Below are positions 6,601 to 40,889 of a stretch of 64,000 nt of DNA, one piece after another. This DNA comes from Haplodiscus bocki (Eukaryota): positions 66,154,001 through 66,218,000 of the forward strand of contig OZ296659.1 of assembly GCA_965655095.1 (NCBI GenBank), given 5' to 3'. A model generated the notes under the pieces. The model worked only from the letters and a program-made list of their open reading frames with translations, had not been told where the DNA came from and did not search any database. The position numbers and the translations under genes are program-made. Position 1 is the stretch's first letter. Each line of letters starts with the position of its first letter.

Positions 6601-6706
6601 GGTTGTACATGAATTGTAGCTTCAAATAGTACGTAAATCCACACTATCAACTTTTGCTGACAAACGATGTTATATAAATGAATTGACACCAAACCTTGCA
6701 ATTGAT
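3614..6706 (+). pseudogene. polB: Protein-primed DNA polymerase B with upstream C2H2 finger, decayed
   Basis: CDICSVDVHRASLAKH (~3700); DNYCF..LHP..HPNRV; ExoI YADFE (~4938); SLPGFTW; motif A-like ASLNG*AMSESLP; motif B-like NNSFNGKTIE; KPNYLGFALEELSKLSLYETYY; YTDSF; DKRCYINE. Confidence 0.9.
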
Positions 6707-7215
6707 ACTGAAAAAGGGTTATAAAAGTAAAATTAATATGTGAAAAGTGTCGACACGTTGAACATTTCAATGATTTGTTTGACTGAGGCATTTTCAACGA
6801 AAATTTTGAAATCAATAGCATTAGAAACAAAGAAGTCATTTGTATATTCAAAACAGGAACTCCTTAAAACGTTTCCATAGATGGATTTATTTGTTTCCGG
6901 AGTGAAACAAAATGATTTAGATGTGGAGGTTTTTGAAAAAAAAATTGAATGGTATTTTCAAATCTCAAAAAAATGACATATTTTTGAATTTATTATAGTT
7001 GTTTATTCAGAAGATAATATCAGAAAAGAAGTGATAGTTATGTAATTCGTTCGGTTGTTCATGAATTGTAGCTTCAAAAGGTACATGAATCCACACTCTC
7101 AGGTTTTGATGACAAACGATACTATTTAAATCAACGGACAGTAAACCTTGGAATTGATACTAAAAAATGGTTATTAAAGTGAAATTAGTATGTGAAAAGT
7201 CGAGACAGGTTAAAA
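6323..7215 (+). repeat. Tandem duplication (period ~449 bp) of the PolB 3' end
   Basis: gatttgtttgactgaggc at 6323 and 6772; the copies align to tgtgaaaagt. Confidence 0.9.
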
Positions 7216-8557
7216 ATATTAAGAAATCCAACAAATACGTTTCACGAGGAAACACAAATGTTAGAGAAAGATAGAAACCTATGTAAACAAAAAGAACAAC
7301 AAAAACTTCATGAACCTATACCATGTTTCAGGATTTTTTGAGTTTTTAATGGTAATAATTTCAATCCTTATTCCCAAAAAAACTATGATTGAAAAGATCG
7401 TTAAGAGAAACTTCTTATGATGGATTTTGCTTTGTTTAGCTTGAAAAATCTTTGGTTTTGATAGACTAATCATTTGGTAATGTGTTTGAATATGTTTTTA
7501 GAAACCAAAACCACAACTCTAATCAAAATAATCACATTTTTTTCAAAATTTTGTTTGAAATGTTTTGAATCACTTTGATTAGGTGGTCTAAAGGTAGCTT
7601 TCACCGTTTTTTCTTCGAAAAGCCGGAAAAAATGAAATGTGTATGAAGTTTTAGTAGTCGAGAAGAAAACTGATGATCGGTTTTTAGTTTAATTCAATTC
7701 TTTTGTTTCCTGTCTACCCCCATTGATAAAAATTTATTTTACTTCTTTTTTAATACTTTTTGTAAAATCTTGTGTACCCGCTTTGACAATAGTTTACCTT
7801 CACTGAAGTTCTATGTTTTCCTGTTTACCCTCACAGATAATAGTAATTTTTGTTTTAGTTTTCCCTCTGCGTTGTCTTGTCTTTAAGTTTTTACTTAACA
7901 TTTGTTTGCAATTTTTTTGGCTGTTGTGGACGCGTTGCGGCTGGTGTCAAATGCGATGGATAGAGCTACTCAAACTATCACTCCTTCTGCATTTTTACTG
8001 GTCAGAAATTGTGTCGAAAACGCATCAGTAACCAGAAAGTTGACGTGAAGAAGAAGTAGCCTTGAAGACTACGGCAGTACATTCAAAGTAGCCCACAGTG
8101 TTCAAATACTAATTTTAATAATATTTTCCCAAGGAATAACATCTATACTTACTAGTTGAACCAAGTAATGAAGCTTCCTTATATTTTAAAAATATTTTTA
8201 AATTTTATGAATTAGCGTAAAATACTTGACGATTAACGTCAAAAGTACCTCAAACTACCTATTTTTCACAAGAATAACTGACGCCTTTACCTCAGCTAAT
8301 TCAGTGTTTTAACATGAGTGTGTCATGCACACTGAATAGTGACACGGTTTCATATACTGCTTTCACCTGTGCTTGTTGATTTGCAAAAAAACCATTTACC
8401 TATTTATATTACCAGCATTGCAGTAAATTTGATTTACTTTTTGATTGTCATGGAAAAACGGTATTTCATGCTTCGATGATTTACATTTGAAATCTTGATA
8501 TTCTTTTTAAAACTGCGTAAAAGTGATGTCCTAGATAGGTGGTAAAAAATCCTTTGA

Positions 8558-8957: not shown

Positions 8958-10680
8958 GGTTTACACACGTAAGAAAAGGAATCACCAGAACAAAGCAGAT
9001 TATCCAGTTGAATTAGACTTTAAAAGATTTTATTAATCGTAACGGTCTCAATGTGGGCGTAACGGACAACAACATCTTAGCACAGCCGACCAATGGTCAG
9101 CACAATGATTTAGAGAGGTTAGTTGAGAGTGCAATTCAAAACCAAGTCATGAAAATTCATGCACAGGACAAAGAAAAACTAAGAAAAGCAGTCGACGACG
9201 CTAACTTGATTGTCGAAAATTGCATGCACGGCAACAGTTTGACAACGACGGATGAACTGGCAACTCTGGGAGTTCAGATGGTAATTTAATCACCACTTCA
9301 TCAGGACATGGGCCAAATAGTGAAATCCTAAACCCTGATCGGAGAGTTTTCTTAGAGAATGCTGGTAAAACTCTGCTCATGTCGGCCTCTAGCCGATTAG
9401 ACTCAAACACAAATCATGATAGGATCGATGAGACTCGTGATGAAAAAAACTTCGAGGATGGCGACCTTCCGGCATTAAGATCTAACTATGACCGGAGAGC
9501 GCAAGCTCATCACTTGGTGACAGGACATAACGCCCCACACAGCAAAAATCCCTAGTACCTCACAGGAGGTTGAATTCAAAACCGAAATGACCCACTGTCG
9601 CAGCAACTTACTCTATTGCAGAGGATGGCTAACATATTTCAGCCGACAGCAGGTTGCAAATGGTTGAGGAAACACCGCAGAGACAAAACTCAGACTCAGG
9701 CAATCCTATGATTGGACTTGCTGAATCTATTGCAAGCATTGCATCTTAACAACGACCCAGACGTCAACACCATCATTCAAACCAACAACAACGAACACAT
9801 TAATCTTCGAAGATAAAAATGAGAAAGATGAAATTTTCAAAGACCTTTTTCAAACGATGCTCAAATTGCAACTTGAAAGGTCAGAGAAGATATAAATCAA
9901 TCATTTTTCCTCACATTTTCGAAAACAAACACAACAGACATTTAGAAATACGAAAGCCAGCAACAAACATACGCTCGCAGAGGTACTTATCATTTTCAGT
10001 CGAAAGTACGTCAGACCACAATCACAAGCCCCAGAAAAACACAGAAAGCGTTATCTCACTTTCAACCTTAGCACAAAATTACTCTCGAATTTCCTTGAAG
10101 AACTATGTGAATGTGCCGAACGCGCTCTTGGGCTTCTTGCACAAGAAATGGTAGAGAAGTTGTTCTTCGCCAAATTACCCCCCACATCTCATACGCTCAA
10201 AAAACTTTGCACTTTTAGAGAATGGCACATACGATGAAATAGTTGCTCCTTTAGAAAGGGAACTTCAAATCAGTGGGTTGGAAACAGATGGAGAAATAAC
10301 CGTTCCCAAGGAGGCAACCACAAAAACAGTAAGCAAACAAACTCAAGGAAAAAAACTCCGAACACCAACAAAGAACTTGCTGATTTTGCAAAAAAAAACA
10401 GCAAATGTCATTGAACGATGTCGCCAAAGCATTCGTAAAGAACAGGCGCGTCAGGGTGAAAAACAAACTACCGATAAACTGAAACGCGAAAACAAATCCA
10501 CCATGTGCACACTGACAAAGGACTTACCACACAGTAGACCTTTGCTGGAAAGGCCTAAACGCTGCCAATACACCTAAATGGTTCAAACCCGAAAATCACA
10601 TTAACTCAATATACGAAAGTTATAAACCACAAACGTCTACACAAAATACCCCGACCTATATCCTCAACAGTACTTTAAAC
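8958..10680 (+). pseudogene. gag: Gag (capsid plus two degenerate Zn knuckles)
   Basis: FKDLFQTMLK..INHF..FSRKYVRPQSQA..FLEELCECAERA..AKLPPHL; knuckle-like C*FCKK and CAH*QRTYHTVDLCW. Confidence 0.8.
10674..10680 (+). promoter_or_regulatory. Putative -1 ribosomal frameshift heptamer T TTA AAC at gag/pol junction
   Basis: X XXY YYZ motif at the end of gag. Confidence 0.6.
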
Positions 10681-11309
10681 AGAAAAAGCCACAACACCAC
10701 TGGTCACCTATGCTACTCGCAACCCCATATGTATTACCCGACCCACCAACTGTCTCCTACCACACAAACGTAAAACTTTGTGAAAGATTTCAGTCAGTTG
10801 TCTGGCAGCAACAGATGGAAACATTTTACTAAGAGCGATACAAAAAAACAAATTTGATCAAATAACAAACTCCCACTCACCACAAGCCATTCAAACAAAA
10901 CATTTCTACACGTTTCGAACTTCACCAGAAACACAAGATTATGAGCCACATATTTTTATCAACACTTTCAGCGAGATCCCAACTGGGATGAAGATCTTCA
11001 CAATTAAAAAAAAACTCGAGGTCAGGAAAAAAACTTGACAATCTATCGGAAAAAGTCGACGACGATGGCAGAATCACAGACTCACACGTATCAGATAAAC
11101 TCAGATACGCCTTGCTTTTCTTATGGACAGATAAGCCACAACTGGCTAATACTTCACCATAACTGAATTTCAAACCACAACCCAATTTCACAAAAAGTCA
11201 AATTCTGGTCCTTGACATAGAAATCAACCCACAAATCCAAACAACTCCCGGCAAAAACACAAATTTCCGACCAATAGTGATAATCCTCCAAATGAAAAAC
11301 ACAAGGAAG

Positions 11310-11660
11310 ATACTCTTTTTTCCGATGGATTTCGGCAATTAAACTATTGATTGCTTCGTTCATACAAACGCGAAAACAGGTGCTATTTTAGCAGCGGTCT
11401 CACAAAAAACTCAATTGCTAGCACTGCAAACATTTTTAAATGAGGGACCAAACCCGGTCTTTCAATTAATGGTAGCGGATGGGCATTTAGAAACGCCGAG
11501 CGCAACAGTCGAACTTCAATTTGACTTTGGGGATATCTTATTCAAAAAGCGTTCCAAAGTAATGCCCAATCTCACAAGACCACTAATTGGATGGCTTTTC
11601 CCACAAAGAAACAGCACCATTCTAGACATGCGTCACGGGGTCTCAATTTTTTTTCCATGT
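11310..11660 (+). pseudogene. pol: Gypsy-1 aspartic protease domain
   Basis: LFFPMDFG..IDCFVHT (eroded DTG), LMVADGHLETPSATVELQF, PLIGWLF. Confidence 0.75.
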
Positions 11661-12319
11661 AACCCAAGTATGCAGACAACAAGTACTCTAACTTCAACGT
11701 TCATTTATAAAACGCAACAGACAACATCTTTATACCAGGCAAAGAAGCTATGATTTACATCAAATCACAAGTTTACACAGAAAAAGAAGTGCCAAGCACA
11801 ATACAACCTGCTCCTGACCTAAAAGATAATGATGACCTCATCATCTGCCCACGTTAACAACCAATCAAAACAGACAATTTACAGTAATCCTCATCAAAAA
11901 CTTCTAGGAGCACCCATACACACTGAAAAAGTAATGCAACGTTGCTAATTTCTCAAAATTGACACCACAGCAAGCGGAATATATCAAACCAGTCAACCCA
12001 GCACCACTGAGTCATCTGCTGGAGACAAACCACGATGATGCCATACAGTACGTGAACGCATTTTGAAAATGCCCCAGTCAGAAGAATCTAATGAAATCTT
12101 TTGGTTACCTACACCTCAGAAACCCGGTGATGAAAGCGAACACACACCCGTACAAAAACGCACACTTCAAGAACTGATTGCTTTAAAGACGCTCAAAAAA
12201 GTAAACCCACAAGACAACCAAGAGTTACGTGACCAATTTTTGTCTCTATTCAATTGGACTGGCTCAACATTGGACAAACAAGCACGTCAATCCATTGAGG
12301 GAATACTTGTTGAAATCCA

Positions 12320-13710
12320 AGGTATTTTTGCAAGGCATAGATACGACATTGGTATCAATATTGACTTCAAATTATAATTAATGCCAATCAATGAAAGTCC
12401 AGCCTAAAGCCAAAAACTAGCAACACCAATCCGCTTGAAAAAATCCATCACGGTGAAAGGAGCCTTATACCGAAAATACGGCAAAATTACCACTCCACCA
12501 TTCAATAAATCTGATAGTCCTATTTCCACTCATGAAAAATTGAACGGTAAACAACCTCTCCTTGCAGATTCACAAAAACCAACAACAACCTAATATCAAA
12601 CGGCTATATAAACAACAACCATCCTGTCATCTAACTGACAGATGCTGCAAAACACAAGACAGGGAAAAATCTATTCTGCAAACTCGATTGTTCCCAAGCA
12701 TACCACTGTCTACAAATGGCGGAGTGGCGATCTGTGCAAATGATTGCATATAAATGTGCCAGCAAAACTTTTGTAAGGCGAAGACTAGCACAAGGCTTTA
12801 GCAGATGACTGTCAGCATTTTCAATTTCTATGCGTATTGATTTGGACCGTGTCTTCAAAGCAAACCGATGCTCTCAATATGCGAATAACATCGGCATTCC
12901 CGCAAGTTCACCTGAACAACTGATCACCAACTTGCGCTCAGTATTCAAATACATTCAAAATGCAGGAAGAAAAACTTCCACGTCAAATTGTCACTTTGGA
13001 ACAAAATTAGTTGACTTCCTTGGCGAAAAATCACACAAAATGGAGTAAACCCACAGAAACTGAATATCAGGGAATTCTTGGAAAAAGTCGATTTTACTCT
13101 AAAAAACATTACAACAATGAAATGGTTTTCTAAAAGATTACCAAATTACGTCCCACGTTTAGCGAAAAGACTAAACTTTTCCTTACAACTCCGTAAAGCA
13201 ATAGAAAACAAAGAAAAAATCATTATCACACCAGAACTAATTAATGAGTTCCACCAGGTTAACAACGTCTTGAACAAATGCTGTCAAATAGTACTCAGAC
13301 AGAAATTAGCAGACACACAGTTAATCTTAATGACGGATGCAAGTTTCAAAGCTGCAGGATATGCAGTATTGGCCGAAAATGATCCGAACCAAAACTTTAC
13401 GTCAACGCGCAAAACCTACACCCCAGTTGCATACGGTTCGAAATCATTTACTCCCTCAAAAAAATGTCCGTATACGCAAAGAAGTTTTTAGCAAGAATTT
13501 GGCATTTGGAGAGTTTGGACATGTGTTTTGTGGAGCACCGAAGCAAGTCATCATCATGACAGACAGCAAAGCAGTGACACGAATTTTTTAAGCAAAAGAA
13601 TACCACCAATATGGAATGCATGTGATTTTGTCCTTCAAATTTCATTTACCATAGCCTTTATTCCAGGCAAAATGAACACCTCTGCTGACTTTTTAGGACG
13701 TTTAGAGTCC
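12320..13710 (+). pseudogene. pol: Gypsy-1 reverse transcriptase and RNase H
   Basis: IFARHRYDIG; LFCKLDCSQAYHCLQMA; RLAQG; QYANNIGI (eroded YxDD); LMTDASFKAAGYAVL..PVAYGSK; IPGKMNTSADFLGRL. Confidence 0.92.
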
Positions 13711-14129
13711 GACCCAAAAGTAAAAAAAATATTCCAAAATCAGAGAAGACATTCCTACACAACCAGTTGAAATCAACATTGAATCAACAGGCATAGAACA
13801 AGAAAATCCAGTTTTTTTAGCGAGATGTTGTTCAATTGCCATCCGAAGAACTGCTATGACATCAACAACAAGAAAAACGCCATGCTATACATACAGAACC
13901 CCCCGCTACAACTTTGTCACACTGGCACAAAAAAAAGACAAGTGCACAAACATATTGAAGCACAACATGACACCATTCATCAAAGTTCCACGCACACTGA
14001 TCAAAAAGATGCAGATCCAGTGTTATTTGATTTCCAAAAACAGATGCTTGTAGAACCTTTCGATGAACAAATCCTGGGAACAAAACCGAGATACAACCAC
14101 TAACCGAACAAAAAAGCATCAGATTCAAT

Positions 14130-15570
14130 AATGGCATCTTGTACAGACACTACTACAACGTCGATGGCGATATCAGCCACATTCATGTGTTACTTACAAC
14201 ACAATTAAAAGAAAGACTGCTGAAAATATTACATGGTCAGTCAGGCAAAAACACAGATATTTCTAAAAAGATGCAAGATTTCAAAAAAAACTTACTGTCC
14301 ATCATTTCCAAACCACGTCCGCATATGGGTAAAGAATGTGAGACCTGCGTCTAAGACAAAAGAAACGACAACTCAAAAAATACACACGAACCCATTAGCC
14401 TACCTGAACTAGATTTAGGTCCAGAAGACGTCATGCAGATAGACCTACTACCAGAATTTCCATCAAGTGGAGGCTAGGAAACATCGCTACAACTATTGAT
14501 GTTTTCTCAAGAGACGCATTTGAATTCCTGGTATCCAGTCCCAGAGTCGTCAACACAGCCAATGTTATCAGCAACATCATGGCAAGACATGTGTAACTAC
14601 CTACCGTGAGGTTGACACACGAAGGCTCAATTTTTTTTTTCAAATTTCATACAAAAAACAGCTGACACTCCAGGCATCACACAGCAACAAGCATCCACGA
14701 AACACGCACAAACTGCCGCCGTCTCGGAAGGAACACATGCTACGACAAAGACATCAATCAAAAAGTCTTCAGGAGGAACTCGCGAACAATGGCACAATTG
14801 TTAACCATTAGCAATGTTATCACAACGTATCACACAACGTATCACACAAGTATCGGTGGTGAACCTGCCTGAACACCTTACAACAAACTCGATCACAGAC
14901 TCGGACTAAAAACTATAACTGGTTTAGTCCCAACAACAGATTTGCAGACGATTTGTTGAGAAGCACACAAGTTTTGTGCAAAAAACTCAAAGCAGTCATA
15001 CATCAATTAGAAAAATTAATCCGACAAAAAAACCATAGCCTCACCATTACAAAAAAATACTACTGCTATATTTTAAAAACTGAAACATTCCAACCTGATG
15101 TTATTATTGTCATTCCTCATAATTATTTGTACAGTATAGCCTGGGAAGCAGAATCTAATCCCTCATTCTTAAATCACCCCAAAATATACCGTGATCCAAT
15201 AATGATTGAACACACAAACAAAAAGAGTTGCTCTCAATCAACAAGGCGATGACAGGATTTTTCCCCGAAAACATAACAATGCATCAGACTCAATTGCCGA
15301 AGCACCACACTCCGATACACACTCAACTCAAGATAACGTCAACTTTCCAAACAATGACACACCAATAAAAACGACGCCCTTATTGAAAATGATGATTCGT
15401 CAAATGTACGTCACGATGTATTTTTACGACAAACTACAGACTCAACTGAATCAACAGAAATAAACACTCCAATTGATCGAAATGATGGTACTATTCAAGA
15501 TGAGAAGGTATCGCGGGGCGGTGAAAGCAACCTACGACCTACCCCTAACCCAAACTTCTCAGACCCGTAA
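14130..15570 (+). pseudogene. pol: Gypsy-1 integrase and C-terminal tail
   Basis: LHGQSGK..CETC (H2C2-like); GPEDVMQIDLLP; IDVFSR. Confidence 0.85.
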
Positions 15571-15766
15571 AAGTATTACTCAAGTGCCAAATATTGAATT
15601 GTTTCGACAGGCTTTCAAAGGTTCTAATTCTTTCCTTTTTCTCCGTTTTATCAATTTCTCTTTTTTCAAGCCTCTAATGGATTGCAACAATGCAGATTTA
15701 CATTAAAACAGACCATTCAAGATTGAAATACAACCTTATCAACTGAAACAAGCAAGCAAACTACAA

Positions 15767-17000
15767 TTATAGAGAAACATCAACAGCAACAGAGTTCCAG
15801 TCTCTTGATGTACCGGCAACACAACCACTTCGGGTACTCCTCGTTTTTTTCACTAACGACGCCACAGAGCCTGACGACCTGACTTTCCCTACATCAAATT
15901 GGGGAGGTTGACCACGCTCCGAACTTTGAAAGCACACAGCGTTGGGACCAGATTTATCCAAACACTCTTCAATACTGGCATTAGCAGCCCGAATGTTTTT
16001 ATAGCTGGTAACTATCTCCTTTAAAAATTGATTCTTGTCGGAGAAATCAACATAGGACCAGGGTAAATAGCCAGGCTCCAATGCAGTTCCAGCAAAATTC
16101 TCCACATCTTCCAAACTATCAGTATTCAACAATGTTTTTGTAAAAACTTTGCTCTCAGGGTTGCTGCACAACAAATAGCTCTGTACCGCCTTGATTATCT
16201 CAGTCAAGTCAAGACCGTAACCTAATCTATTGGGCGACACAAATTTGACTCAAGGCAATCCAGCACCATGCAAACAAAAGATTTGAAGCTGAAAAACGTC
16301 AAAGTTTTCAATTTTCGACACAACTCGGGACACCCATACAAGAAAAAAATCTTATCTCCAACATAAGCCCCGATTTTGTCACCATCCTAGTACGCAAAAC
16401 ACACGTCATCAACAAAACGCAGATACTCCTCAATATGGGTTGCTCGGAGCTCCTTCGCAACCCAGTCACGGACAATGAAACTCTGGAAAAAGACTACAAA
16501 GACATGCAGTCGCCTGTTAATTGGGGAGTTGAAAAAAGACAGCGTAATCGAAGGAATCTAAGTTTTTCATGAGATCCGGTTCTCACATAGCGTGCACGAA
16601 GATTCCATCACAGAAAGAACAAACTTCGGATAGTTTCGGGCAAATCCAAACAACGCATTTAGCGAGTTGACCGGAACAACCGAAGCCACTACATGTGCAC
16701 AACTCTTCTTTTTTGAACGCTCTCTCTCTCTCTCTCTCTCTCTCTCTAGATCAACAGTGGCTTTGGCAACGCAAAGAGCAGAATTCTGAAATTGGGTTTC
16801 TTTCAAGAAATCGCTCAATCCTAATAATGTCTTCCCGGCAAAATTGAAAATGTGCATAGACTCCGACTATCCCTCCGTTTGCAAACAAACTTTTGAAGCA
16901 ACTCTTGGAAGCAAACAGTAGAAGAATGAAGTCAATTGCCCAAGAAAGAAGAGACCCTGGTCCCATCTGCTTGACTGGGGAAAAAAACTATGCATGAAAC
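15767..17000 (-). pseudogene. Antisense accessory ORF1 of Gypsy-1 (~400 aa, unknown function)
   Basis: ORF-track pieces 16751-16966, 16567-16857 and 15767-16240 join through few lesions into one protein-like reading. Confidence 0.65.
16720..16747. repeat. (CT)14 microsatellite
   Basis: Direct observation. Confidence 0.95.
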
Positions 17001-17109
17001 TTTGCATAAAACATATCAGAAAAAAACACGGCTCAATTCCTTGAGGCTAAAACAAACCAAATCAAAATTTAACTAGTTGCCTTAGAATTTCTGAAACATT
17101 TTTTCTCGC

Positions 17110-18560
17110 AGCTTTAACTAACATGTCCTTTCACTTTTTGAAAATCCTGTTCTTGCCCAGTCAAATCAATAAATGTGCACACATTCTGCCACTGCTTAGT
17201 CGTTTCTTGAACCACGCGATGTAAATTTGAAAAATCCCTCGACCGATAATCACGTGCTTTCAACAAGAAACAACTTACTCCATCCACGACACCAAGTCAA
17301 AATAACTAAGTTTGTCAGATTTAAGGTTCTACTTTCGAAGACATAGTGTACTTTGCATCCAGTTTAAATGCAAAGTCGACGCAGGAGAGATTCCACGGGG
17401 ACAAATTTATCAATTTTTCCCATCACGCTGTGACTGGGCTACCGTAACGGCTTCTCTACGCTCAAACGTTCTATGTACAATGGACAATGCGCTCCATTTT
17501 TACGACTGGGTGCCAAATCAAGAGTTTTTATGACGTCCAATCCAACACTGCTTCAGCTTAAAATTTCTGGGTTTCGTGACACAACGCTCAAAAATTGAGA
17601 AATCATTGACAGCTGGTTTTTCACTTTTGGTGAATAGCTGTAACAGCGCAGCAATTCAAGATCCACCAGTTGCTGTCCTTCCCACAATCTTACTTTCAAT
17701 GTATGGCTCTTTGGCGTCACAGGGAACCCAACTGACATGAACTTTGACTTCATCAAAACTTCTTTATATTCACCATCAATTGCAAAAACAAGTGATTGAG
17801 GATTTCCTACAACACAACATCAACATATAAAATTATGACAACAATTGACCATATCTTTGGATACGTTTTTTACTACCAAACGCAAATTCCAATACTCATC
17901 AAGTCAGTTGTATGTCTTACAAAAATACAGTGACAATCAAACTCACACTAATATGCTCTTGGCTCCAATTAAAATCCGAAGTCCAAGCAGCACTACCGGT
18001 CAACAATCCAACCTTCGTCAGGTTCTATCAACGGGACCAAAATCAAACTTCGAGAGATTCGCAAGTCTAGAAGCAGACACCAAAAACTCACATGACTCGT
18101 TCATATCAAATGCAACATTTGCAGCACGCTTAAAATGGGATCCAACCGAGGGAACGTCCACGTGAATCAGCTCTTGTGTGATGAAATTTTTTTTCTTCAA
18201 TAGTGTCGAACTATTTACATCATCACTCACTCCCAGCACATCTGCAGCTCCACCACTACCACTCAGTCCACCAAGAATTTGCACAATCGGCTCTTCATCA
18301 ACTTCGAATAAGGTCTGTGTTTCACTTTCACCAAAGGATCGTAACTTTTCCGCTCAGTACTCACTCACACTCACTCCATCATCATTCCAACTTGATAGCT
18401 CACTAACGTCACCTGCGCCTATACTGACTGTTTGCTCGCTAGTTCATGCTTTTTGTAAAATAATCAGGGTTTTTGCTGGGGATGTGCCAGTTTTGGGAAC
18501 TTCTATTCTTTCGGGACACAAAATCCGAGATACATCTTGCTCACACTCTTGTCCTTCGGT
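17110..18560 (-). pseudogene. Antisense accessory ORF2 region of Gypsy-1
   Basis: Acidic/Gly-rich 18018-18284 piece; near-continuous reading GNPQSLVFAIDGEYKEVLMK...TFIDLTGQEQDFQK (~17810-17110). Confidence 0.45.
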
Positions 18561-19876
18561 TTGCATAACCTCAAGCAATTGGGTTCTTCTCTCTAAATTA
18601 CGAAAACCTATGAAACTGCACGGTAAATTACCAGTGAACTCATTCAATTCTCATGGACTCCAAATCCGGAAAAACGTGGTTGTTCAGATCAAAATTGAAA
18701 CACGGGCTTTGAAAAGTGAAAGAAGTTATTTCTGGCTAAGTAAAAAAAAAACATCACTGATCAAGAAGTTCTTGGTCTCCTATGCTAATATGCAAATTAA
18801 AGAAAGAAACGTGAACTCACCCGTTTCGTACAGTATGATGATCTCCGCAACACCCTTAGAACCAGACAACCTGCAGATAGAACCTGAATCCAAGTCAGGG
18901 ATGGTGTACAACAGCAGATTTACAAAGGTCGGGAGGCACACACTTTTAAACAATAAAGAAATAAAAGCTAATCGAATGAGATTTTTACAGTATATACAGT
19001 TAACAAATATGTGGATGTCGTGGCTGTACAATAGTGATTTACGTCAAAATCATGTCATAACAAAAATTTCTGACCTAAACATACAACTACATACTTTTTT
19101 ACATCAAGTAATATCAACTTCTGCCAAAGTTGAAATACATTTCTCTATCAACCAATTTTATATATGTCATTTTTACGTCGTATTACTATTTCATTGACCA
19201 AAATCTTTCATTCCACCCATGTTTTTTGCTTCCAACTTCAATTCCACTCAGGACATGTCCCAATCATCTGATTGGATAAACCTCAATCACTTATCAGCAT
19301 CATTAGAACCAGCCAGCATTGCTTCAACACTAGTTACATAGCTCATCAACAAAGTTTGATACTCGGCTCAAAAGGTACTTGAAATCACACAACAACGCTC
19401 TCACCGTCACTCATCATCATCACTTCATCAATGAATACCTCTAAATTATTTTACCCGTAATTCGTATCAACATCAAATGCCGCTTCTCAGTGATTGGACG
19501 GAATTTTGGCGGGACTCACAACCCCTTTTCCCTCTCCCAACCCAAACGCATATCTTTCAACTACATTGTTTTGCTCATATTATGCCAAATCAAAATCTGC
19601 CAACTGTTGTTCAAAAACAGCGAAAATATATTTTAAAACCAAAGCAATAACTGACAATTCCACACACTTGACGATGGACCAAAATGAACCTATGCAAATT
19701 GAACCCATCCGCTTATCAAGCAACGAAGACACTAAGACACAATAACCCATGTTTGACCAAGAATTGACAAACGAAAATGATGAGCAATGACTGAACCAAG
19801 TTGTAATCAACCTGAATGACCCAACAGCTACAGCCCAGGTCACGACTCCCATGAATGACGTCAATATGCGAACACT

Positions 19877-20076
19877 NNNNNNNNNNNNNNNNNNNNNNNN
19901 NNNNNNNNNNNNNNNNNNNNNNNNNNNNNNNNNNNNNNNNNNNNNNNNNNNNNNNNNNNNNNNNNNNNNNNNNNNNNNNNNNNNNNNNNNNNNNNNNNNN
20001 NNNNNNNNNNNNNNNNNNNNNNNNNNNNNNNNNNNNNNNNNNNNNNNNNNNNNNNNNNNNNNNNNNNNNNNNNNNN
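19877..20076. other. Assembly gap (200 N)
   Basis: Run of N. Confidence 1.
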
Positions 20077-21129
20077 ATTACACTCCTCATCTGCAGTTTG
20101 AAACCGGAACTCCGTGACAATTGTGCAAAATGGTATCATTTTTCCGAAAAAAAGATGAAAATTACGGTAGTTGAGGAATGTACTGTCTTTCGTTGTTTTT
20201 TCAAAGGCCTTGCTTACTATGTTGGCAAATTTTTGTTACGTTGCAAGGAACGGCAACTGATCAAGAACTTCACACAAACACGCCCCTGCAGCTCCGTAAA
20301 GTGTGGCGATTGATGAGTTTAATATTTGATTGACAGCAATCGCTGCCATTTTGTCTGTCATGCTCTGCAACTTCCATTTTAGCCCTGGTGACCATCACTT
20401 TTTCGGCAGTAAATTCACTGGTTTTACAGCAAAATGTAATTGCTTTACCTCTCTCTAGTCACGTCATCAATTCTAACCTTTCGTTGGTTGAGGTCAACTT
20501 TCAATGTTCATCGGAGTAAAAGGTAGCTTCGTCCTAAATAATTTTCAGGAGACGCTTTGCATATCGGTATCTTCAAATTCTGAAAGGGACATAACATGGT
20601 TATACTCTTGTGCGCTTCTTTTTTTCAACGTAAAATAAATTCAAGTCTTTTGATTTTAACAAATATGGGCAGCACTTGTGAATTTTGAAGTTTTGTTTCG
20701 TAAACTGTCAGTCTTGCTGCTTTTTTGCTATTTTTTCTAGTGCAGTGTCTTCTTCTTTACCTTTGTGGGAGTGGCTTCTAGACACACTTTTTTGCGTTCC
20801 TCTTCGTGATTTAAGGATTTTTTGTCCATTCTTCGGCCAAATTTATCACTCTTTACAAATTCCCCAATTACTGAAATCCCGAGTGCAATGCATAACGATA
20901 TTTTAATTTTAATTTGGGCGTTTTCTGAAAAGTGTCCATTGCATTGGAACGGGATTTTGCTTTAAGTCGATTGTATGTTTCGTGATTGAAATGATAACCG
21001 TACCGTTAGGTTGATCAGTCCCTCCTATTCACATTGAGCTTTGAAATCTTGTGATTTTTGTTTTTTTGCCATATCGTGTAAATAAAGTGATTGTCGGTAA
21101 TTTGGTCAAAATTAGTGTTTTCGGAGCTT

Positions 21130-22092: not shown

Positions 22093-24049
22093 AAGGAAAA
22101 ATGAGGTTTAGTTATCATGTTAGGCTGAAACTAAAAAAAAGTTGACAGTGAAGCCTACTGAAAATGCAAGGGTCGGGGTGGTTGAACGGACATGACTGGT
22201 ATGGATTTGGCATAATCAGTATGTGTGATTGTTTCAGTAAGAAATCTGCAGCCTCGGTACTTCACAACAGGAGTCGTGTGTTTAGGAACTCGCATCCATT
22301 GGACGAAACAGGTCAAATATGGCCCTGCACGATGTCTTCAATGCATGATGGACACAAAAATTGCCAACCAAAGGTTAACCAGCCTACACAAGCCTTGAAA
22401 AACTGAGGAACATCAGCTTCGCGAGAAGAAAACAGACTGCAGCACCGAAAACTTCTTGTGAACAAGTGAAAGAGGGCGTCCCAAAAAGCGTGTGAGCAGC
22501 GGAAGGCACTGGTTGTTGGCGTTTCTCTAGTTTATTTGGAGTCGACTTTTGCCTTGACTGTGGCGCAGGTGATAGATGTCAAAAATGAAATCGAGGAAGG
22601 AGGAGAAAATCTTTTGTTGACGCAGTTATATAGACACAAGCTAAGTTGTTGCCAGTTTAGGGAATCGTTGGTTCACCAGTGTGAGTCTGTGGCTGTTGAC
22701 AGAAATGTAGAGATAGTGGACTCTATACTTTTGCACGAACAGCAACTGCAGGCCTTGGAGTTGGCAATTTCATTGTTTCAGGCTAATGAATGATTTTGTT
22801 AGACGACCTGTTGAAAACGTTTCATGAGTACATGTTGTTGCGTACATGTTTGTGATGATGTTTGGTTGTCGATTAGACGCTGAATGAAGGTAAATTAGAC
22901 GAATTACAAACCAAATAAAAAACATAATAAAGTGAAAAGAGAAAGAAAAAAAAGAAAGGGGGAAAAGGAAAAGCGAAAAAAGAAAGAAAACTAAAAGTTT
23001 AAACTCGCAAATTGAAAACCAAGGCTGGGGAGTGGGGTTTGAGAGTCGGAAGTGTTTAATCTATAGAAATCTGTTTTAGAGGTTGTTTCTCTATGGGCTG
23101 CTTTTTTCGGTTGTGGAGCGTTTGAAAGACTACCTGTCGGAGACCGTACCATAAGCTCTTCACGTGAAGCGACCGGCTTGTTAAGCTCACGTGTGGTTTG
23201 CATGAAACGAGGAGGAAAAGTGTGGACTGTGGGCCTCAGCGGTGTCGTTGTCGTGTCAAGACGGGAAAACGACGTGGCCGGGCTACTTTCTGGAGGCATT
23301 TCTGTGCGCCGTTTTTGAAGAGCCCAGAAGCACTGGTTATGGATGAGGTAGGCGATCTGTCGACTCGGTTGTCCAGTTCGATCTTTCAAGGCAGTCTATT
23401 GGTCGCGACGTGAAAGTACTTCGACTGGCTTCACAATCCCATCAAGGAGGTCAGCTGGTACAGTTTTCTCGGCGTGGAAAACTAGAGTGTTGTTGGTTTT
23501 TCAACGGTTTAGGATGGCGTCAGATCGCATGGCCAAAGTGATGGAGAAGTTCCCTGGTCCGAATGCTGTAAATTTGTGTATGTAATGTGCTAGGCTGAAA
23601 ATAGAAAGGTAACGAGAAAAGATATAAAAGAAATCCAAAATTAAAAAAGGAAAAAACGGAAGTTTGAGAAGGGTGGTCTTGTGGTTGATGAATGTGTTGA
23701 TTATTTGCGTCGATTCGTTTTAGCGTTTTTTTGGATGACGGAGTTTTTTCCGTCAAAATAGGGGATTTTCTTGTAGGTAGTGGAACATTGGGACGCGCTG
23801 CTGGAGTTCCTCTCGGACTTGGGGTTGATGAGAATGTGGAGACATTCAGTGGTGCGAGCGTCGATTTTAAGTCACGTGGCGACCGCACTTTGGGGGCTCT
23901 ATTTGCTTTGATGGCACTCATAGCGAAAGGTGGTGAACGTGGTTGTTAGAGATTGAAAGAGAAAGCAAAAAGGATCAAGTTTCATGCCAGTTGGTTTTTC
24001 GGGCAGATGTGATAATGATTTTCTGACTGTTTTGAACATCTTATTTTTT

Positions 24050-25346
24050 TTCGAAAGGTAGTGGGGAGGTTTGCGATAACGTTATGCGCGTAAGTTGCGC
24101 TCAAATAATGATGTGCGAGAATTGTTTCAGTGGCCGAATGTTGTCTGCAAACTTGTGGTGCGACTGCTAACGAGCATTTTTATTGAAGAAACTTGGGTTG
24201 CAAGGAAACGTCCATACAATGATAGTGCTGATCGTCGATCCCTCGTGAACTCCCTGTCCTTTCATTGTAGCACGAATTTTGCGGTCTCGGAGAGCTCATA
24301 TTATGCCGTTGAAGGAGGCAACACGATGTGGAATGGCTTGTGATTTCAGCCTGTACATCGGGACTAGTGGATGTGTAATGGTGCAGCAATTCTAAACCAA
24401 TGCTCGCCATTGCATTGGGATTTTTATGAATCAAGTCGCCAACGGCCTGACGGATCGCGCTTCAATTTCTTTAAATCTGGCGCCACCGTGTCCTGCTCTG
24501 ATCCGCCATGGAAAACTTGATCAGTTCGGTGTATTAATGTTTCACTTCGGGAGTGCGTTGGCTGCCAGAGGCGTCTTGACGGAAGCTGAGTGAGAGAAAT
24601 TGGTTCCTCATTTTTTGAAACGGAGTGAGAAGTTCAAGCATCAGTGGAGAAATGACGCAGGCCTACCGATCATGGACAATGTGGCGTAGTTCTTGTTGGG
24701 ACTTTTAACATAGAAAAAACTCTCGGTGTTCCGGAAGGTCGCTGAGATCTTGACAGTGTCGTCAACGAGTGGCTGTTACCTTAAGGACTTCGTGAATGAT
24801 GAATTAAGCGCCAACTAAAACAGTGAGGTGGTGGGCGCGCTAAAGGCTCTGCACAGTCACTTCAGTCACTGAGGTGTGTCATCAAGTGGTCGGTTGGGTT
24901 GCCGAAATAAATTAGTGTGCAAGAAAACTATAGTGAAGTCTACTCGCTTAGATGATCCATTCTTGACTTCACTTTGGGAAGGTTTGTCTTTTGGGAGTCA
25001 GGGGTCTTTAATGACTGAATATGCGAATGTTCTGAGGAAGAGCGTGCCGAGGGCCGTGTTCCCAAAAATTATTGAGTACACCTCTGAGTTTCTCCATGAA
25101 ATGGGTGCGAAGCAGGCCAAAAGAATGTGAGAGCGGCCAGGTCCCCGAGTGTCACCTGCGAAAAAAAAGGTGAAGAAGACGAAGAAGGTGAGTTTCTGTG
25201 ACTGTACGCTAGTGATGAGTTCCTCAGCTTCAGTGACTTGTCTTTACAGCCTTTTTGACGCTGAAGGTAGGAGCGAGGACTCATTATTTGCGATGCAGCG
25301 AAAGCAAAAGAGGTTCAAGCCGGCCAGTGAAAGCGGGAAGGAGTGA
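24050..25346 (+). pseudogene. Antisense accessory ORF of Gypsy-2, probable homolog of Gypsy-1 antisense ORF1
   Basis: ASISLNL..SALAARGVLTEAE*EKLVPHF..DNVA*FLLG..ALKALHSHF..SLWEGLSFGSQGSLMTEY, read through stops. Confidence 0.55.
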
Positions 25347-27479
25347 ACTGTTTTGATTTTACGTCAAACTCTTGAGCACTTAATTTGGTTCTGTTGATTT
25401 TTTTGGAAAAGTTCGTTTTTTTGCTTTGGTGATTGTAGTTAGTGGCCGCAAGCTAGAGGAAAACGACCGAAAAAACAGACAAAAAACCAAACGTGTGTTC
25501 CCATGAGAGAACACTTTGCTGTTGGAAAAAGAGAAAGCAAAAGCAGAGAAAAGGGGAACGAAACTGAAAACAGAGATAAAACGAGACGATGGTGAAACTC
25601 AACTGCATTTTCCCACTATGAAGTCTTCTTCCTTGAGAATATATGTGAGGTTGAGAGAAAGAGAGTGGGGGTTCTTGAATGACAAGTTACATATGAGGGA
25701 GAAACGGGTGTTCTTAAATGAAAAAAAAATGACAGTGTCTTGGGTGAGGAACAATTTAGAGGTTCGGTTTCTTGGGAAGAACAAAAAATACTCCGTTGCT
25801 GTGTAAAAAATGATTCAGATATTATTCAGATGTCTAATCGTTTACATAAAGCATAGTATAGAGAATTTTGCACGCTTAGTGTTAATAGATAGTGAGGGAT
25901 AACTCAAGTTATTAATCTTGAATTTTTGCCAATTTTTGTGAGCCATGTACAAGGATGGTTAATGATGACATTTTTTGTGAGCGATTTACAAGTAGAGAGA
26001 TCAATAACTGAGTCACTTCCTTTCGACTTTGATGGTACGATGTTATAGAAGCTGTCTTGAGACTAACATTTGTTTTGTGATTGCATAAGTATAAAAAGTC
26101 GGCGTCAACATGGTGTTGGTGATGAAGCTGCAAGAAACTAAAGATAATGTTTTGAAAGTAGGTGTTGAAGGTGAGAATGTTCGCCCTTTATGGTTGAGAG
26201 CATTGTGAGTCAGTTCATAGATGTTGGATGGATATGTGGCCGGAAAAAGATAGACCTACTTAAAAATGTTGGTAAACTGCATGGGTATGTTGCTCATTGG
26301 TAGAGTTTAGGCATGGTTTGCATTGGTGGAAAGGGAGCAGTTTATAATGAAAGTTGATTACTTTTGCATGACTACATGCAGTTGTTTCTAGATCTTTTGT
26401 AAGAAAAAGTGTCTAAATTCAGTTTTAGGAAAAAATGTAAACCTTCAGTTTTGGAATGGTGGTTTTAAGTTGCGTACAGCCAGGTAGTTCGATAGAAAAC
26501 ATCTAACAAGGCTAAGTGATGTAAACTGTTAGTTGCGTGATAGTGTTTTTTTGAACTTGACTGTGAGCGATGAGGACGCGCGCTTGTTGCTGTGTGCAGA
26601 ATCAGAAGAACTGATAATTTCGAATCAAACCATTTTCAAGCATCGAATGTTGCATAATTAAACTTTCTGAGTAGGAACACATCGAGTGCTGCTTTGTAAC
26701 TTAGTTCCTGCATTGGTAACCTTGGTAGTCCCTAAGTTTAGGATGTTTCCGTAAAATGCACTTTGCACCATCTGGCGTGTGTGCGAGCAGGGTCCTGCTC
26801 ACGTGCTTTGTTATTACCGTTATCGGGTGTCGGTAACGAAGCCTGGTGATGAGGGATATATTTATCGCGTGAGGTCTATGTCCATGATTCTATCCATTAG
26901 TTTGTGAGGATTCATCCTCTGGTGTTTGATGTGTACTTATAGGCGCGTCCTTGTGGAGTGTTAGAGGAGTTTCATTTGAGACCGCCTGAAGTTTTGGCAC
27001 CGTCATCTCAGGTATTATTGTTGTCGGTGCAGAAAAGTTACCGGTTGTACTTGGGTTGAAAATTCTTGATGGTTTTCCTTGTCGACGTCGGTTTCTTCGT
27101 CTGGTAGTTTATCCGAACGACGTGTGTTTATTCGGATGTGAGTCGAAGAAAGCTCAGGGTTATCAGTAATGTCAGGGTACTGGTAAAACTGGAGTTCATC
27201 CACTTGAAGCTCAGGAGCGTTTACAAGTAACATGAAATTGGGAGGCGCATGCAGTGCACGCAATTGGTTTTAAGAGTACCAGTTTTGCGGATGACGTACA
27301 TGGAATGCGTAAGACTTTTCGTGAGTTTTCATCGACCTTTCCGGAGGAACATCATGAACTGTGTTTTGTCTGACTGTGTGTGGTACTTTTAATTTCGGAG
27401 GAAGACATACCGATACTTTCAAGGGTTGTGAGTAAACTTTTGAATCGCAATAATTTTTATACAAGTGCATTCTTTCGAA

Positions 27480-28340
27480 GATCTTGGATGTTGTGTCTTT
27501 GTACTTTTCCTAAACTTCATGGACTCAGAGTTCCGAGTTATACTTTGTTACGATTGTTTTCCAAAGGTTTGCTAAACTTGAGATCGGGTGTGTTGTATGG
27601 GATATGTCTATGAAAACCCTCAGCTAGTGTCCTTGTTAGTGATTGGTGGAATTTCGTGTTATGGGCAGTGATGGCGAGGTTGACCTAACGATCGCAATGA
27701 GGTGTATCTGCAGCATTGTTAGCCTTTAAGGACTCTTTGAGCTTCTGATAATTGCGTTCGACAATAGCACAGCTCTGGTCGTAGTTTGATTGATTTTGAT
27801 GCCAGACTTGCTCATGAGGTTTTTCTGTACTGGGGCAGCAAACGCAGAACCTTTGTCAGTTTTCAATCGATCCGAGACATAATTATGTTGAACGACAATT
27901 TGTAAACATTCGAGAAAGTCTGCGTTGGAGCTCCGTTGCCTGAGTGGAACAGCGAAAGGTATCTCAAAAATGTGGCAAATGGTCAAGATGTGCGTGTAAG
28001 AGTTTGAAGCCGGTAGTTTTTCTACGAAGTCAATATCCGTTGCATCTTCCGGTCCATCGTACGGGCCTTACATTTGCTCCAGAGCAGACCGGAGTTGCTT
28101 GTTGGGACATGGTTTGGATCGAATGCACATCTCACAGTTTTTGTTGTAGTCCTGGAGTTTACGTGCCTGGTCAGAGTTGTAGTACTTAGATCTTTGGACT
28201 TTCAAACTTTCCGATGCGCCAGAGTGCCCCGGCAGGGAGTTCTCAATCAGTGTCCAGTTCATGACATCGATTATGTTATTAAGGTCCACACTTTGCTTGT
28301 TACCAGGTATACCGTTGTAGTCAAAGTACTGTAAGCACAA
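27480..28340 (-). pseudogene. pol: Gypsy-2 integrase
   Basis: GHSG..YY..NCEMC; GPEDATDIDFVEKLP; FAVPL; TDKGSAF. Confidence 0.9.
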
Positions 28341-28849
28341 AACGTCTGTGTGACGTGTAGCCGGTCACGGTTTTTTGTATGTTTTTCAAGAGAGTGGTTT
28401 TCAATGTTCGGGTGTGAGGGACGTAGTTCTATGTCACTAATGATGCGGATCATTCATTGAAAGTTTACGTCGAAAAATTGGGCCGTTAGAATTTCATGGT
28501 CCGCATGGGGGTTTACCTGGTTCACTTCGAAGCAGTACAGTGAGTTTTTTGTGACAAACGTTACGTGGTGGTCGACGTCAGAGCGGGTGTGTCCATCGTG
28601 CTAGATGATTAGGTCGTGGATGAGTCTCAAGTGGTGCTCTTCGTCATTCTCTGATGCACAATCGAGCTGTGTGACCATCGTCAGTAATGCATTGACGTCC
28701 TGTTGGTTCGGCTGGGGGGGTTGTTGCAGTACCTGTTTAAGGTATCATGTCGGCTCGGTGATCCTCTTCGTCATTGTCCGGCTGCGAATTTTGTGATGCC
28801 AAGTCAACCTCGTTGTGAGAGATCAGAGTTGAGTCAGACAAACTTAGGT

Positions 28850-30000
28850 AAGTCCTGTTTCTGGACGTGACGTCTAAACGAGAAAAGCAGTCAGCGTTAA
28901 AGGCATTTGGTGCCCGGTAAACCGGCGAGACCCAAAAGCGGATATGCTCTGTTTTTGATGACGCTGTCTTTCCGTTTGCGTACTCTTCGATCAACAATAC
29001 GGAGCCTGCAGCGTGTTCAATGGGATCGCACAATAATACTAGTTATTGTTCTGTTAATGGAACAAAAGTTTGGCTGCCTTGGCAAGGTTTTCGGTAACAT
29101 CGATATGATGATCATTTTGAGCTTGCGTCAGTTGAACTTTTGTGTCTCTCTGGAGCCAAAAGAACAGCGGGATGATTTTTTCAGCCAACCTCGAAATGAT
29201 TCGACTGTGAACGCTTACAAACCCTATATATCTTTGGAGTGCTTTGACTGAAGACGGTAGTTTAAATTTGGTGAAAACGTTCCCGTTTTCTGGGCAGAAG
29301 TGTTTGCTTATCGTTTTTTCTAAAAACTTTTCTCTCTGCATTCTCAAACGTTGCTTCACTCATAGACTGTTTAAGATCACCAAGTTCGGTCAACTGAAAC
29401 ACTAATTCATTGTTTTGGATAAGCTTGTCTGCACTTGGAGCTGCCATGCCGATGAAATGAAGGTTTTGACCGCATCTGTCGGCCTTCAGTGCAGGCTCGA
29501 GGTGATCTCGGACGACACTGTTGAACGCTGAAATTGGTGTTTTCAAGCCTTAAGCAAAATGTTGGCACGCGAATAAGCGAGCTCCGAAGTTGAACGACAG
29601 TATTATAATCAGTTTCTCACCTGCAGACAGTATTAGGCTTGAAAGGAGTCACGTCTGTGAAATTACTTTTTCCCTGCCAGATGTTAAGTTGCTTCACAAC
29701 TGCCGTGACTGGATGGTTGTGCTCAAGGCAATCGTGGTTAATGGGATGGTTGATTTGTCTCAACTCAACTAAAATACTTTACCAATAGGTTTGCGTGGAA
29801 CAAAAATGAGTGACGATTAATTGCTGAAAGGCAACGTGGAAAAGGTACCGCAATCTTTCTGCGAAACGACTTCAACAAACATTTCGTTTATGAGGTTCCT
29901 TGTCGTTGGTTGTATGAAAATTGACTCATGAAGCTAGGGGTTTAATTTAACTTTGAATTCAATGCTACTATTTTCGCCAAGCCTTTTTCCAGCAAACGAA
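28850..30000 (-). pseudogene. pol: Gypsy-2 RT and internally deleted RNase H
   Basis: SAFNSVVRDHLEPALKADRC; LPSSVKALQRYIGFV; FGSRRF jumps directly to ADCFSRL. Confidence 0.85.
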
Positions 30001-30699
30001 CAGGTTTTTTTTCTGCCAGTGATCGTTCCATCATAGAGTGTCCTTCAGTTTTTAAATGCAAAAACGTTCAGTTGAACTGATCCAGCAAGACGTTGCGCTG
30101 TTCGTCATCCAATGTCGGTTCCAGTTTCTCGAAATCACGGAGTTGCAGACTATTGTCATAGATCTGTCGTCCTAACGGTTTGAGGGCCTCTGAGTCCCCG
30201 CAAGTCTCGGGCGTCGGGTACCGTCGTTAATCGACGGGCGAATTTCGCATCTCGAAAAGCTGAAAGATCCTGTTGTTGGCTTCGTCTGGTTGCAAAGATA
30301 CGAGAGTAAATTGTTCTGACATTATGAGTCGCACGTGACTAGCTTGTCCCAGTGTGAGTTTATGAGTTTGGCGACAACTGTTCTGTGGCTGATGATGAAC
30401 GTGTGGGCATTCATATTAGTGGCTTGGGTGTTTCTTCGTCCTGCTTGAAGTTGTTTCTTTGTTGGGGTAACGTTGAGGTGTGACTTTCGGCAGAAAGCGT
30501 GGGTAGCTTCACGGATTCCGAAAAAGTTTACAATTTCAGTTATTGCAATGGTCGGAACCATAATTTGTACGAATGGGCCCTTGAATTTCTGGAGGGATTG
30601 AGGCTCAAAGATTCTGTCTCGAAATTTACTAATGAGGGGCTTGAGTAGTACTGACAAGTGCTGAGAATGAAAGAGCTTCTTGCTGAGGTCAAATGACAC

Positions 30700-36399: not shown

Positions 36400-36610
36400 C
36401 TCCGAAAATTTCTCAAGTGGAACAAGTTCTCTGTTTTTGGCGACAGACTTTCTGGAGAACTTGATCAAGTGGATTAGCAACCCCAGACAGCGTGTCTGAG
36501 AAAAAAATTCAAGTGGAAACGGTTCCCCGTTTGAGGAGACAGGTTATCTGCTCAGATTACTCAAGTGGAACAAAATCTCCTCATAAGGAGACAGCTTGTC
36601 TGAGCATTTA
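36400..36610 (+). repeat. Array of four ~52-bp tandem units
   Basis: tcaagtgg at 36413, 36465, 36509, 36561. Confidence 0.85.
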
Positions 36611-36899
36611 CTTTGTTTGCTTTGTTCAATTTGGTCTCAAATGTTAAAAAAAACACATACATTTCCAAACAAAAAACAAAAAATGAAATTCAGAAGTTGA
36701 AAGATTCCAATTCATGGAATCTTCGATGTGAGCTCATCCAGTGACCTAGTGAACCCATTGAGTTTTCAACCACCACAGCTTAGCTCCCCAATTTATTGAC
36801 AACAAAGAACAATTGAAACCTGATTGGCTTTAATAAAACCGATACCACCGATGAAACTCGCAGTCATAATCAAGCGCCTTTTCCTTGCAGCTATACTAC

Positions 36900-38100: not shown

Positions 38101-38497
38101 TTGTGCAAAAAAAGGCAAAAATCATTCGATTTATGGCAAAGTCGTGTCGATTTCACATTGGCTGACACAGTCAACAAAAAAGTATATTCCAGTCTTGTTT
38201 TCTTGTTTTTTTTATATTCGCATTCTAAAGTACAGCAGCATATAATTCTCCATCTCCAAAGATGGTAAAGAGTGGTCTTTCGACTTTGGTTCAGCTTCAA
38301 TTACTTTGACTGTAGAAGATCTCGTCCAAACACAGAAAAGAAGTTCGCAGGAAATTCCCATGCCAACTCGGAGCTTGCTGTTGTCTCAAACGCAAGACTG
38401 TTGGAACAACCATCTAGCGCGAGTTCCAATTGCCCCTAACCAGCAAGGAACACATAAAATGAGGCAGGAATTACTTTCAAGTGTAGGTGCTTAAGAT

Positions 38498-40400: not shown

Positions 40401-40569
40401 TGTACAAATCTACTAAAAAAAAAGAGGTTCCATATATGGGAATTTTATGTGACAATGACCAAAAAAGATGCCTTTACAGGAAACCAATTGCAGCTCCAAA
40501 ATCTTTCTTTAACTTTCAGTCACATAAAAAAAGAACTTCTTTCAGCTACCAGTGTTCTATGTCGTTCAC

Positions 40570-40880: not shown

Positions 40881-40889
40881 GTCCAACCT

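Follow-up and report, generated by a model that had tools for sequence, protein, structure and literature searches.

Which gene do two divergent Gypsy retrotransposons of Haplodiscus bocki carry behind pol, on the strand opposite to it, at the place where env would normally lie? The question is raised by a 64,000-nucleotide stretch of contig OZ296659.1 (positions 66154001-66218000; hereafter the window), which holds two decayed Gypsy elements arranged tail to tail. An initial annotation had described in each of them an antisense open reading frame (ORF) of about 400 codons downstream of pol (ORF1 in element 1, ORF2 in element 2), and had regarded the two as colinear and as an old accessory protein of no recognised family. 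According to searches of this 1.5-Gb genome, each stretch is what decay has left of the last exon of an antisense gene that is predicted to have four exons and lies between pol and the 3' long terminal repeat (LTR). This gene is under purifying selection, and its product is probably, judging from its sequence, a DNA transposase without its former cutting site that would now serve as a DNA-binding helper.

Predicted structure of the antisense gene

In ten young copies extended to 30 kb, the cassette behind pol is about 6 kb long. It holds three antisense frames (about 733, 191 and 422 codons), with a further short frame separating the second from the third, and, directly ahead of the 3' LTR, a frame in sense orientation. 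Alignment of these copies revealed three gaps with conserved ends and diverged interiors, which all fall between codons and measure 159-226, 69-82 and 73-84 nt. GT..AG ends are present in 25 of the 30 gaps between exons, and 24 of the 30 gap lengths are not multiples of three. The four predicted exons would very probably be spliced into one protein of about 1,297 amino acids (668+162+45+422 codons). The last exon is open in younger copies, with 87 of 106 matches to a distant public relative lying in stop-free frames of at least 400 codons, the 106 being the best-scoring matches and so biased to open copies.

The same six predicted splice sites are readable in element 1 of the window (gaps 17807-17946, 17257-17332 and 17047-17122), where the exons are just about 30-45% identical in protein and one exon-1 piece reaches 69%. 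The exons upstream of ORF1 and ORF2 occupy 17123-18650 (minus strand) in element 1 and about 22330-23932 (plus strand) in element 2. The predicted parts of the gene are:

15767..17046, minus strand: exon 4 of element 1, helical core and Ser/basic tail, with frame changes and a (CT)n run (tblastn E 1e-29, profile E 5e-40); an AG acceptor ends at 17047
17123..17256, minus strand: exon 3 of element 1, a mini exon (45 codons in young copies; E 8e-12), with the GT..AG gap 17047-17122
17333..17806, minus strand: exon 2 of element 1 (162 codons in young copies; E 8e-24), by eye a degenerate catalytic-core region, with the GT..AG gap 17257-17332
17947..18045, minus strand: 3' end of exon 1 of element 1 (E 3e-9), with the GT..AG gap 17807-17946
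18258..18650, minus strand: 5' remnant of exon 1 of element 1, an acidic low-complexity N-terminus (E 4e-9)
22330..22420, plus strand: BED-like zinc finger C-x2-C ... H ... H in exon 1 of element 2 (decayed), matched by profile to the finger of the element 1 family
22500..22781, plus strand: 3' part of exon 1 of element 2, with a donor-like site at 22782 that reads GC in the window and GT in 5 of 9 aligned rows
23080..23567, plus strand: exon 2 equivalent of element 2, with a donor GT at 23568 (6 of 9 rows); its likeness to exon 2 of the element 1 family is positional and by eye
23760..23932, plus strand: exon 3 equivalent of element 2 (start approximate), with a donor GT at 23933 (8 of 9 rows), matched by profile to the mini exon
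24050..25346, plus strand: exon 4 of element 2 (start approximate), with stops and frame changes, recognised by profile and by the substitution pattern in this frame (see below)

In the element 1 copy, no match was obtained for the middle part of exon 1, which codes for the finger. The family of element 2 (family 2; that of element 1 is family 1) shows donor-like sites in the same order, with GT in 5, 6 and 8 of 9 rows; acceptors are less clear, and poorly conserved stretches follow two of the three donor-like sites.

The antisense orientation and the position downstream of pol described initially hold for both ORFs, and the ten motifs quoted from their translations, as well as the Ser/basic tail that ends both stretches, were found where they had been placed. 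However, both frames are interrupted in the window: no open piece of ORF1 exceeds 160 amino acids, and ORF2 contains 6 stops within 24462-25346 (295 codons). Each forms only the last exon of a gene that extends further upstream. At 343 codons, the frame at 18166-19197 (plus strand) is longer than any other open frame in the window; it lies opposite the exon-1 remnant and is probably an incidental shadow frame. An assembly gap (Ns) follows it at about 19877-20077.

Purifying selection

The ratio of non-synonymous to synonymous substitutions (dN/dS, NG86) was computed for seven subfamily pairs, leaving out pairs with saturated dS. It was 0.14-0.19 for exon 1, 0.06-0.10 for exon 2 (3 pairs; 4 saturated), 0.04-0.21 for exon 3 (5 pairs) and 0.05-0.11 for exon 4 (3 pairs; 4 saturated). 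Constraint was strongest on the finger region (0.03-0.06, against 0.26-0.46 for the N-terminus of the same exon). As pol controls, reverse transcriptase (RT) gave 0.02-0.06 and integrase (INT) 0.01-0.11. The other two frames of the same strand had a mean dN/dS above 1 and many stops, while the opposite-strand frame sharing third positions gave 0.12-0.51, a pattern also seen for pol. Near-identical young pairs ranged from 0.2 to 1.0 on few changes.

The decayed window copies carry the same signature. The ratio of non-synonymous to synonymous differences (pN/pS) against old relatives was 0.52 for the ORF1 piece (19 of 19 loci) and 0.48 for ORF2 (18 loci representing 11 distinct copies) in the initially annotated frame, compared with 1.1-1.2 in the other frames (1.08-1.09 for ORF2); all these loci were picked by protein similarity, which favours the tested frame. 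A second ORF1 piece spans frame changes and was uninformative. A dN/dS near 1, which the initial annotation had named as counting against its proposal, was thus found neither for the window copies nor between subfamilies.

Carrier elements and co-mobilisation

LTR pairs (TG..CA) of about 1.8-2.2 kb, 96.8-99.9% identical and enclosing about 16 kb, delimit nine of the ten young copies, the remaining one being disturbed, and 5-bp target site duplications (TSDs) flank all three copies checked. The moving unit has LTRs and 5-bp TSDs. Pfam domains of a younger copy run from gag to protease (PR), RT, RNase H (RH) and INT, the order of Ty3/Gypsy. Since gag, pol and the antisense cassette are enclosed by the same LTR pairs, the cassette is mobilised together with the LTR element. 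No LTR pair was found for either old copy in the window, where the following parts remain:

9636..10680, plus strand: gag of element 1 (decayed), found by tblastn with the gag of a younger copy, which matches Retrotrans_gag and zf-CCHC
10674..15576, plus strand: pol of element 1 (decayed) in PR-RT-RH-INT order, mapped from a younger copy in which Pfam gives that order
27242..30397, minus strand: pol pieces RT, RH and INT of element 2 (decayed), mapped on the window

The two pols are distant, with a best tblastx piece of 30% over 86 amino acids, in agreement with the initial view of divergent Gypsy families. The pol may resemble that of Gypsy elements from acoel worms. When the 160-amino-acid piece of ORF1 served as query, 150 of 150 scored candidates matched (out of 1231 candidates in all). 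Among 40 family-1 loci, selected by the ORF itself, 37 had pol on the opposite strand, tail to tail, and the other three had no pol within 10 kb. Starting from ORF2, a further related group of loci was reached (family 3), in which 18 of 21 had an opposite-strand pol by tblastn, two more by tblastx only (with the pol of element 2) and one none. In every locus with a pol match the gene is antisense, unlike env, which is sense and follows pol.

Open multi-copy relatives exist in other assemblies as well, as indicated by P0172 and P0214, which represent clusters of 84 and 37 sequences and whose best matches in this genome are only about 30% identical. With P0172 as query, no relative was found in JGI metagenomes. 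Beside one old cassette copy (L039, 7119-10000) lie frames that we take to resemble Polinton-type capsid, integrase and ATPase genes.

Probable homology of the two families

Whether the two ORFs are related could not be read from pairwise comparison: neither recovered the other in the genome searches, and tblastn and hmmsearch gave nothing. A first comparison of hidden Markov models (HMM-HMM) gave E 0.62, and deeper profiles E 0.05. A profile search found 993 representatives at E <= 0.001, and the divergent ones formed a 63-row alignment. Against 181 in-frame pieces of families 2 and 3, this alignment matched over 223 columns with a probability of 50%, E 1.6e-4 and a score of 40.5, compared with 23.1 for the best of 30 block-shuffled controls and 16.9 for the reversed one; family 2 alone gave E 0.02.

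The other exons add to this. The exon-1 fingers of family 1 and families 2/3 matched with probabilities of 30-44%, E 2-5e-4 and scores of 28-29 (controls 16-19), the finger located in element 2 matching that of family 1 with a probability of 44%, E 2.4e-4 and a score of 28.3, against 15.8 for the highest of 20 controls. Between the mini exons there is a weak match (18 columns, E 0.006), and exon 2 showed no profile match between families 1 and 2 (HMM-HMM E 0.65). Because of the exon-4, finger and mini-exon matches, together with the shared position and exon order, the antisense genes of the two window families are in all likelihood homologous. The initially proposed colinearity is therefore undetectable pairwise and emerges above controls in deep profiles. 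Of its five motif pairs, three are in register in the E 0.05 alignment, KAVQSYL/KALHSHF is out of register, and the first pair lies outside the aligned range. With purifying selection and profile homology, the idea of an old accessory protein-coding gene common to divergent Gypsy families has held up.

Evidence on a probable hAT origin

Three separate weak signals follow one another along the gene in the order of hAT transposases. The first is the C-x2-C..H..H finger, conserved in families 1-3. The second is a helical region resembling residues 341-609 of Hermes (PDB 8edg); Hermes had been expected before the fold search and was, among the rows listed, the only one aligning over more than 124 residues. 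The third is a C-terminal helix motif. ERxFS, whose absence had been pointed out from the start, is indeed lost: matches to E[RS]x[FW]S are confined to 2 of 246 rows and in neither case fall in the conserved column after the C-terminal helix. At the catalytic Asp positions, assigned by eye, family 1 mostly has Thr/Gln and Gly. The early hunch of hAT C-terminal helices lacking ERxFS thus gains support from the likeness to Hermes and the loss of ERxFS, while the tests against hAT profiles were negative (see below).

Other searches remained without a lead. Foldseek against the PDB and viral libraries returned nothing at E <= 0.001, its further rows being helical bundles only; PDB by sequence gave a best E of 0.3-2 or none; Pfam scans yielded no core-domain match in the antisense gene; and ESM Atlas leads all stayed under 0.9. 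The sole model covering exon 2, our first structure model, had a predicted local distance difference test score (pLDDT) of 38 and was not used, and a homodimer prediction for the finger region returned no answer (score 0.00). A hAT-subtype motif, taken as a DNA pattern, had 0 matches in this genome, so that no donor element was found. Elsewhere in the genome, L051 (4963-6834, minus strand) carries a 624-amino-acid hAT transposase frame, and many same-score 624-codon matches suggest a very young hAT family.

Cassette exchange and a second accessory gene

The cassette exons of the ten copies fall into types that are 68-78% identical in DNA, with synonymous sites near saturation, whereas in those pairs RT, INT and gag share 86-95% identity. 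In one pair RT is 95%, the spacer described below 92% and the sense ORF 95% identical, but exon 4 merely 69%. That the types diverged while gag-pol remained alike points to an exchange of cassettes as old alleles.

A second accessory gene is present in several young copies. It consists of a frame of about 320-340 codons in sense orientation (L071, 5401-6377, plus strand), which runs into the start of the 3' LTR. Its first Met lies about 75 codons in, and the product is acidic/Pro-rich with a C-x2-C motif; dN/dS in young copies is 0.17-0.27, and no Pfam match was obtained. Element 1 retains a remnant:

19527..19748, plus strand: sense accessory ORF of element 1, located just before the 3' LTR in young copies (E 1e-6)

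Between the diverging accessory genes lies a spacer of ~700 bp (L071, about 4620-5300) with 84-93% DNA identity in nine of ten copies, above that of the antisense exons. It is a candidate two-way promoter for the exon-1 ATG and the sense ORF. Contig depth at the spacer is far above that of the exons, perhaps from deleted derivatives.

The window also contains a tandem duplication at 6312-7222 (period about 450 nt, 82-89% identical) and, at 36486-55290, a long degenerate inverted duplication with 20 arm pairs of 47-407 nt that are 71-90% complementary, together with ~1.1-kb direct duplicates and a 52-nt tandem repeat.

Discussion

The cassette described here holds a real accessory gene under selection, of a known antisense type, whose probable origin is unusual. 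The initial annotation had suggested a role in silencing suppression, RNA trafficking or spread. The accessory nature stands, but a gene about three times longer than assumed, with intron-like gaps and a BED-like finger at its start, indicates a transposase-derived DNA-binding protein rather than one for RNA trafficking or spread.

As to origin, it is likely that a hAT with introns once landed in reverse orientation between pol and the 3' LTR, and that its cutting chemistry was then lost while the finger and the helical scaffold were retained. Introns antisense to the genomic RNA escape splicing and are copied by reverse transcription; the introns would thus persist because they are not removed from the sense genomic RNA. 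As to function, the catalytically dead product might act in the nucleus, where it would bind DNA of its own element and help to keep that element transcribed, a reading that we regard as possible, though somewhat short of an even chance. The most constrained finger, the acidic N-terminus and the basic tail fit such a nuclear DNA-binding regulator. Still tentatively, the BED-like finger would recognise short motifs of either the LTR or the conserved spacer, the acidic N-terminus and the scaffold would activate transcription or oppose silencing, and the exon-1 ATG and the sense ORF would diverge from the spacer as promoter. BED fingers bind subterminal repeats (PMC10368747, in its accessible part), and transposases and transposase-derived proteins are sequence-specific activators of their own elements, according to the available text of 10.64898/2026.08.24.746577.

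Several observations weigh against this picture. The gene model, its splicing and its expression are predicted from DNA alone. Introns 2 and 3 are read through in frame in one subfamily (P0078, P0097, P0102, P0106), and a 698-codon frame in this genome may likewise read through gaps 2 and 3; splicing need therefore not be obligatory in that subfamily. All finger matches in Pfam are under the cut-off (zf-BED E 0.08-0.18, Spin-doc finger E 0.017), and the ESM Atlas leads for the finger region are Plavaka and CACTA (0.86-0.88), not hAT. HMM-HMM comparison with hAT profiles was negative throughout for exon 4 (E 0.12-0.74), exon 2 (E 0.13-0.52) and the finger region (E 0.11-0.81). Families 2/3 keep an Asp at the second catalytic position assigned by eye in 44 of 131 rows, off-frame rows included. 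Finally, cassette type is not strictly tied to LTR type among the ten copies, which weakens a strict specificity for the own LTR. Two further searches gave nothing: among 15 of 188 contig joints listed (contigs of unrecorded kind, all 30 bins covered), none fell at a predicted intron, which is no evidence on expression, and no annotated longer homologue (740-2110 amino acids) was among 8000 scored candidates, which is weak evidence.

The same hAT-derived protein could instead act at integration, by tethering the integrase-cDNA complex to chosen chromatin or by pairing cDNA ends. In other Gypsy elements a chromodomain or a host targeting factor does this tethering. Binding and pairing the ends of an element is what a transposase scaffold is made for, the Hermes-like helical scaffold is strongly selected here, and the basic tail might help the protein into the nucleus. 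If the product were closely tied to integrase, however, the two would be expected to travel together, whereas the cassette was swapped among nearly identical ones (INT 93% but exon 4 69% in one pair), and we consider this role unlikely. Similarly, we doubt that the product is a conflict factor, that is, a decoy or dominant-negative protein against a host silencing protein, active hAT transposases or rival subtypes, with old types under balancing selection. The deep divergence of cassette types relative to gag-pol and the young hAT elements of this genome would suit such a factor, but dN/dS is low throughout with no accelerated protein change in pairwise values, and there is no close likeness to the present hATs of this genome.

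Rather improbable is a gene that is real and spliced but not hAT-derived, being a captured host gene or stemming from another DNA transposase superfamily, with the Hermes match as a chance helical likeness; against it stand the three signals in hAT order and the fact that Hermes was foreseen and was the sole listed row of such length. The notion of a passenger, either a DNA transposon that inserted on its own and is carried along with no function or a transposase that is still active, draws on the decay of both window copies and on the nested insertions common in this genome, but is largely refuted by purifying selection with saturated dS, by the same position and orientation despite ~30% identical pols and by the loss of ERxFS, and has only a minimal chance of being right.

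Taken as a transposase-derived helper, the gene can be placed among known systems. Antisense ORFs between pol and the 3' LTR, as here, are found in plant Tat/Retand Gypsy elements (TRP28, PF04195; maize Grande gene23; rice RIRE2) and in fungal Boty; in contrast to the plant cases, the host here appears to be an animal, the gene has about 1,300 codons and three intron-like gaps, and Pfam scans of it gave no match to TRP28. In the accessible parts of PMC11963269 and PMC7264820, the plant and fungal ORFs are described as kept in most copies, as located in a region of 3-6.5 kb and as proposed nuclear DNA-binding regulators, Grande gene23 having its own promoter; the word 'intron' is absent from PMC11963269.

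With hAT transposases such as Hermes and with dead hAT-derived host proteins (presumably of the ZBED, ZNF862 and C17orf113 types) the gene appears to share the BED-like finger in first place, the helical region, the C-terminal helix motif and the order of these parts. It differs from hAT transposases by lacking the ERxFS glutamate and by an N-terminus of ~530 low-complexity amino acids and about 100-150 extra C-terminal residues. Unlike the host proteins, it is moved by an LTR element with 5-bp TSDs, so that the domesticator is another transposon and not the host. Spm TnpA and the AtMu1 transposase activator are likewise transposase-derived, non-catalytic and element-encoded and have a similar proposed action, but regulators of this type stay within DNA transposons. 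VANC proteins are anti-silencing proteins encoded by transposons. The env of errantiviruses shares the position but is sense and a membrane fusogen, and HBZ/APH-2 of human T-cell leukaemia virus (HTLV) offers an antisense nuclear regulator (for HBZ, the accessible part of PMC11963269); no likeness in sequence or fold was found to either.

Among the paper titles and abstract starts listed in literature searches, with most subscription papers and Repbase lying outside their range, none described this element or a spliced hAT-derived antisense accessory gene; the repeat library of PMC9911081 might include related elements. LTR abundance has been reported in acoels, with 0 occurrences of 'antisense', 'Gypsy' and 'transposase' in the available text (PMC9911081), and 'retrotransposon', 'LTR' and 'Gypsy' have 0 occurrences as whole words in 10.64898/2026.08.24.746577.

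Origin and role of the antisense accessory ORFs of LTR retrotransposons are a stated open question in the accessible part of PMC7264820, according to which their origin is unknown and the lack of similarity to transposable elements does not support a nested-element origin. In contrast to those cases, such an origin has supporting evidence here, namely a nested DNA transposon turned element part. If true, a class I element has domesticated a class II enzyme and carried its introns through reverse transcription. More speculatively, an old and still-expanding Gypsy lineage may have domesticated a whole intron-bearing hAT gene, kept antisense, as an anti-silencing or targeting factor swapped between backbones like retroviral env. 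With many young copies and several old alleles in existence, one can directly test whether the gene is spliced, whether its product binds DNA and how it affects expression of the element. The gene may help to explain the high load of LTR elements in such genomes.
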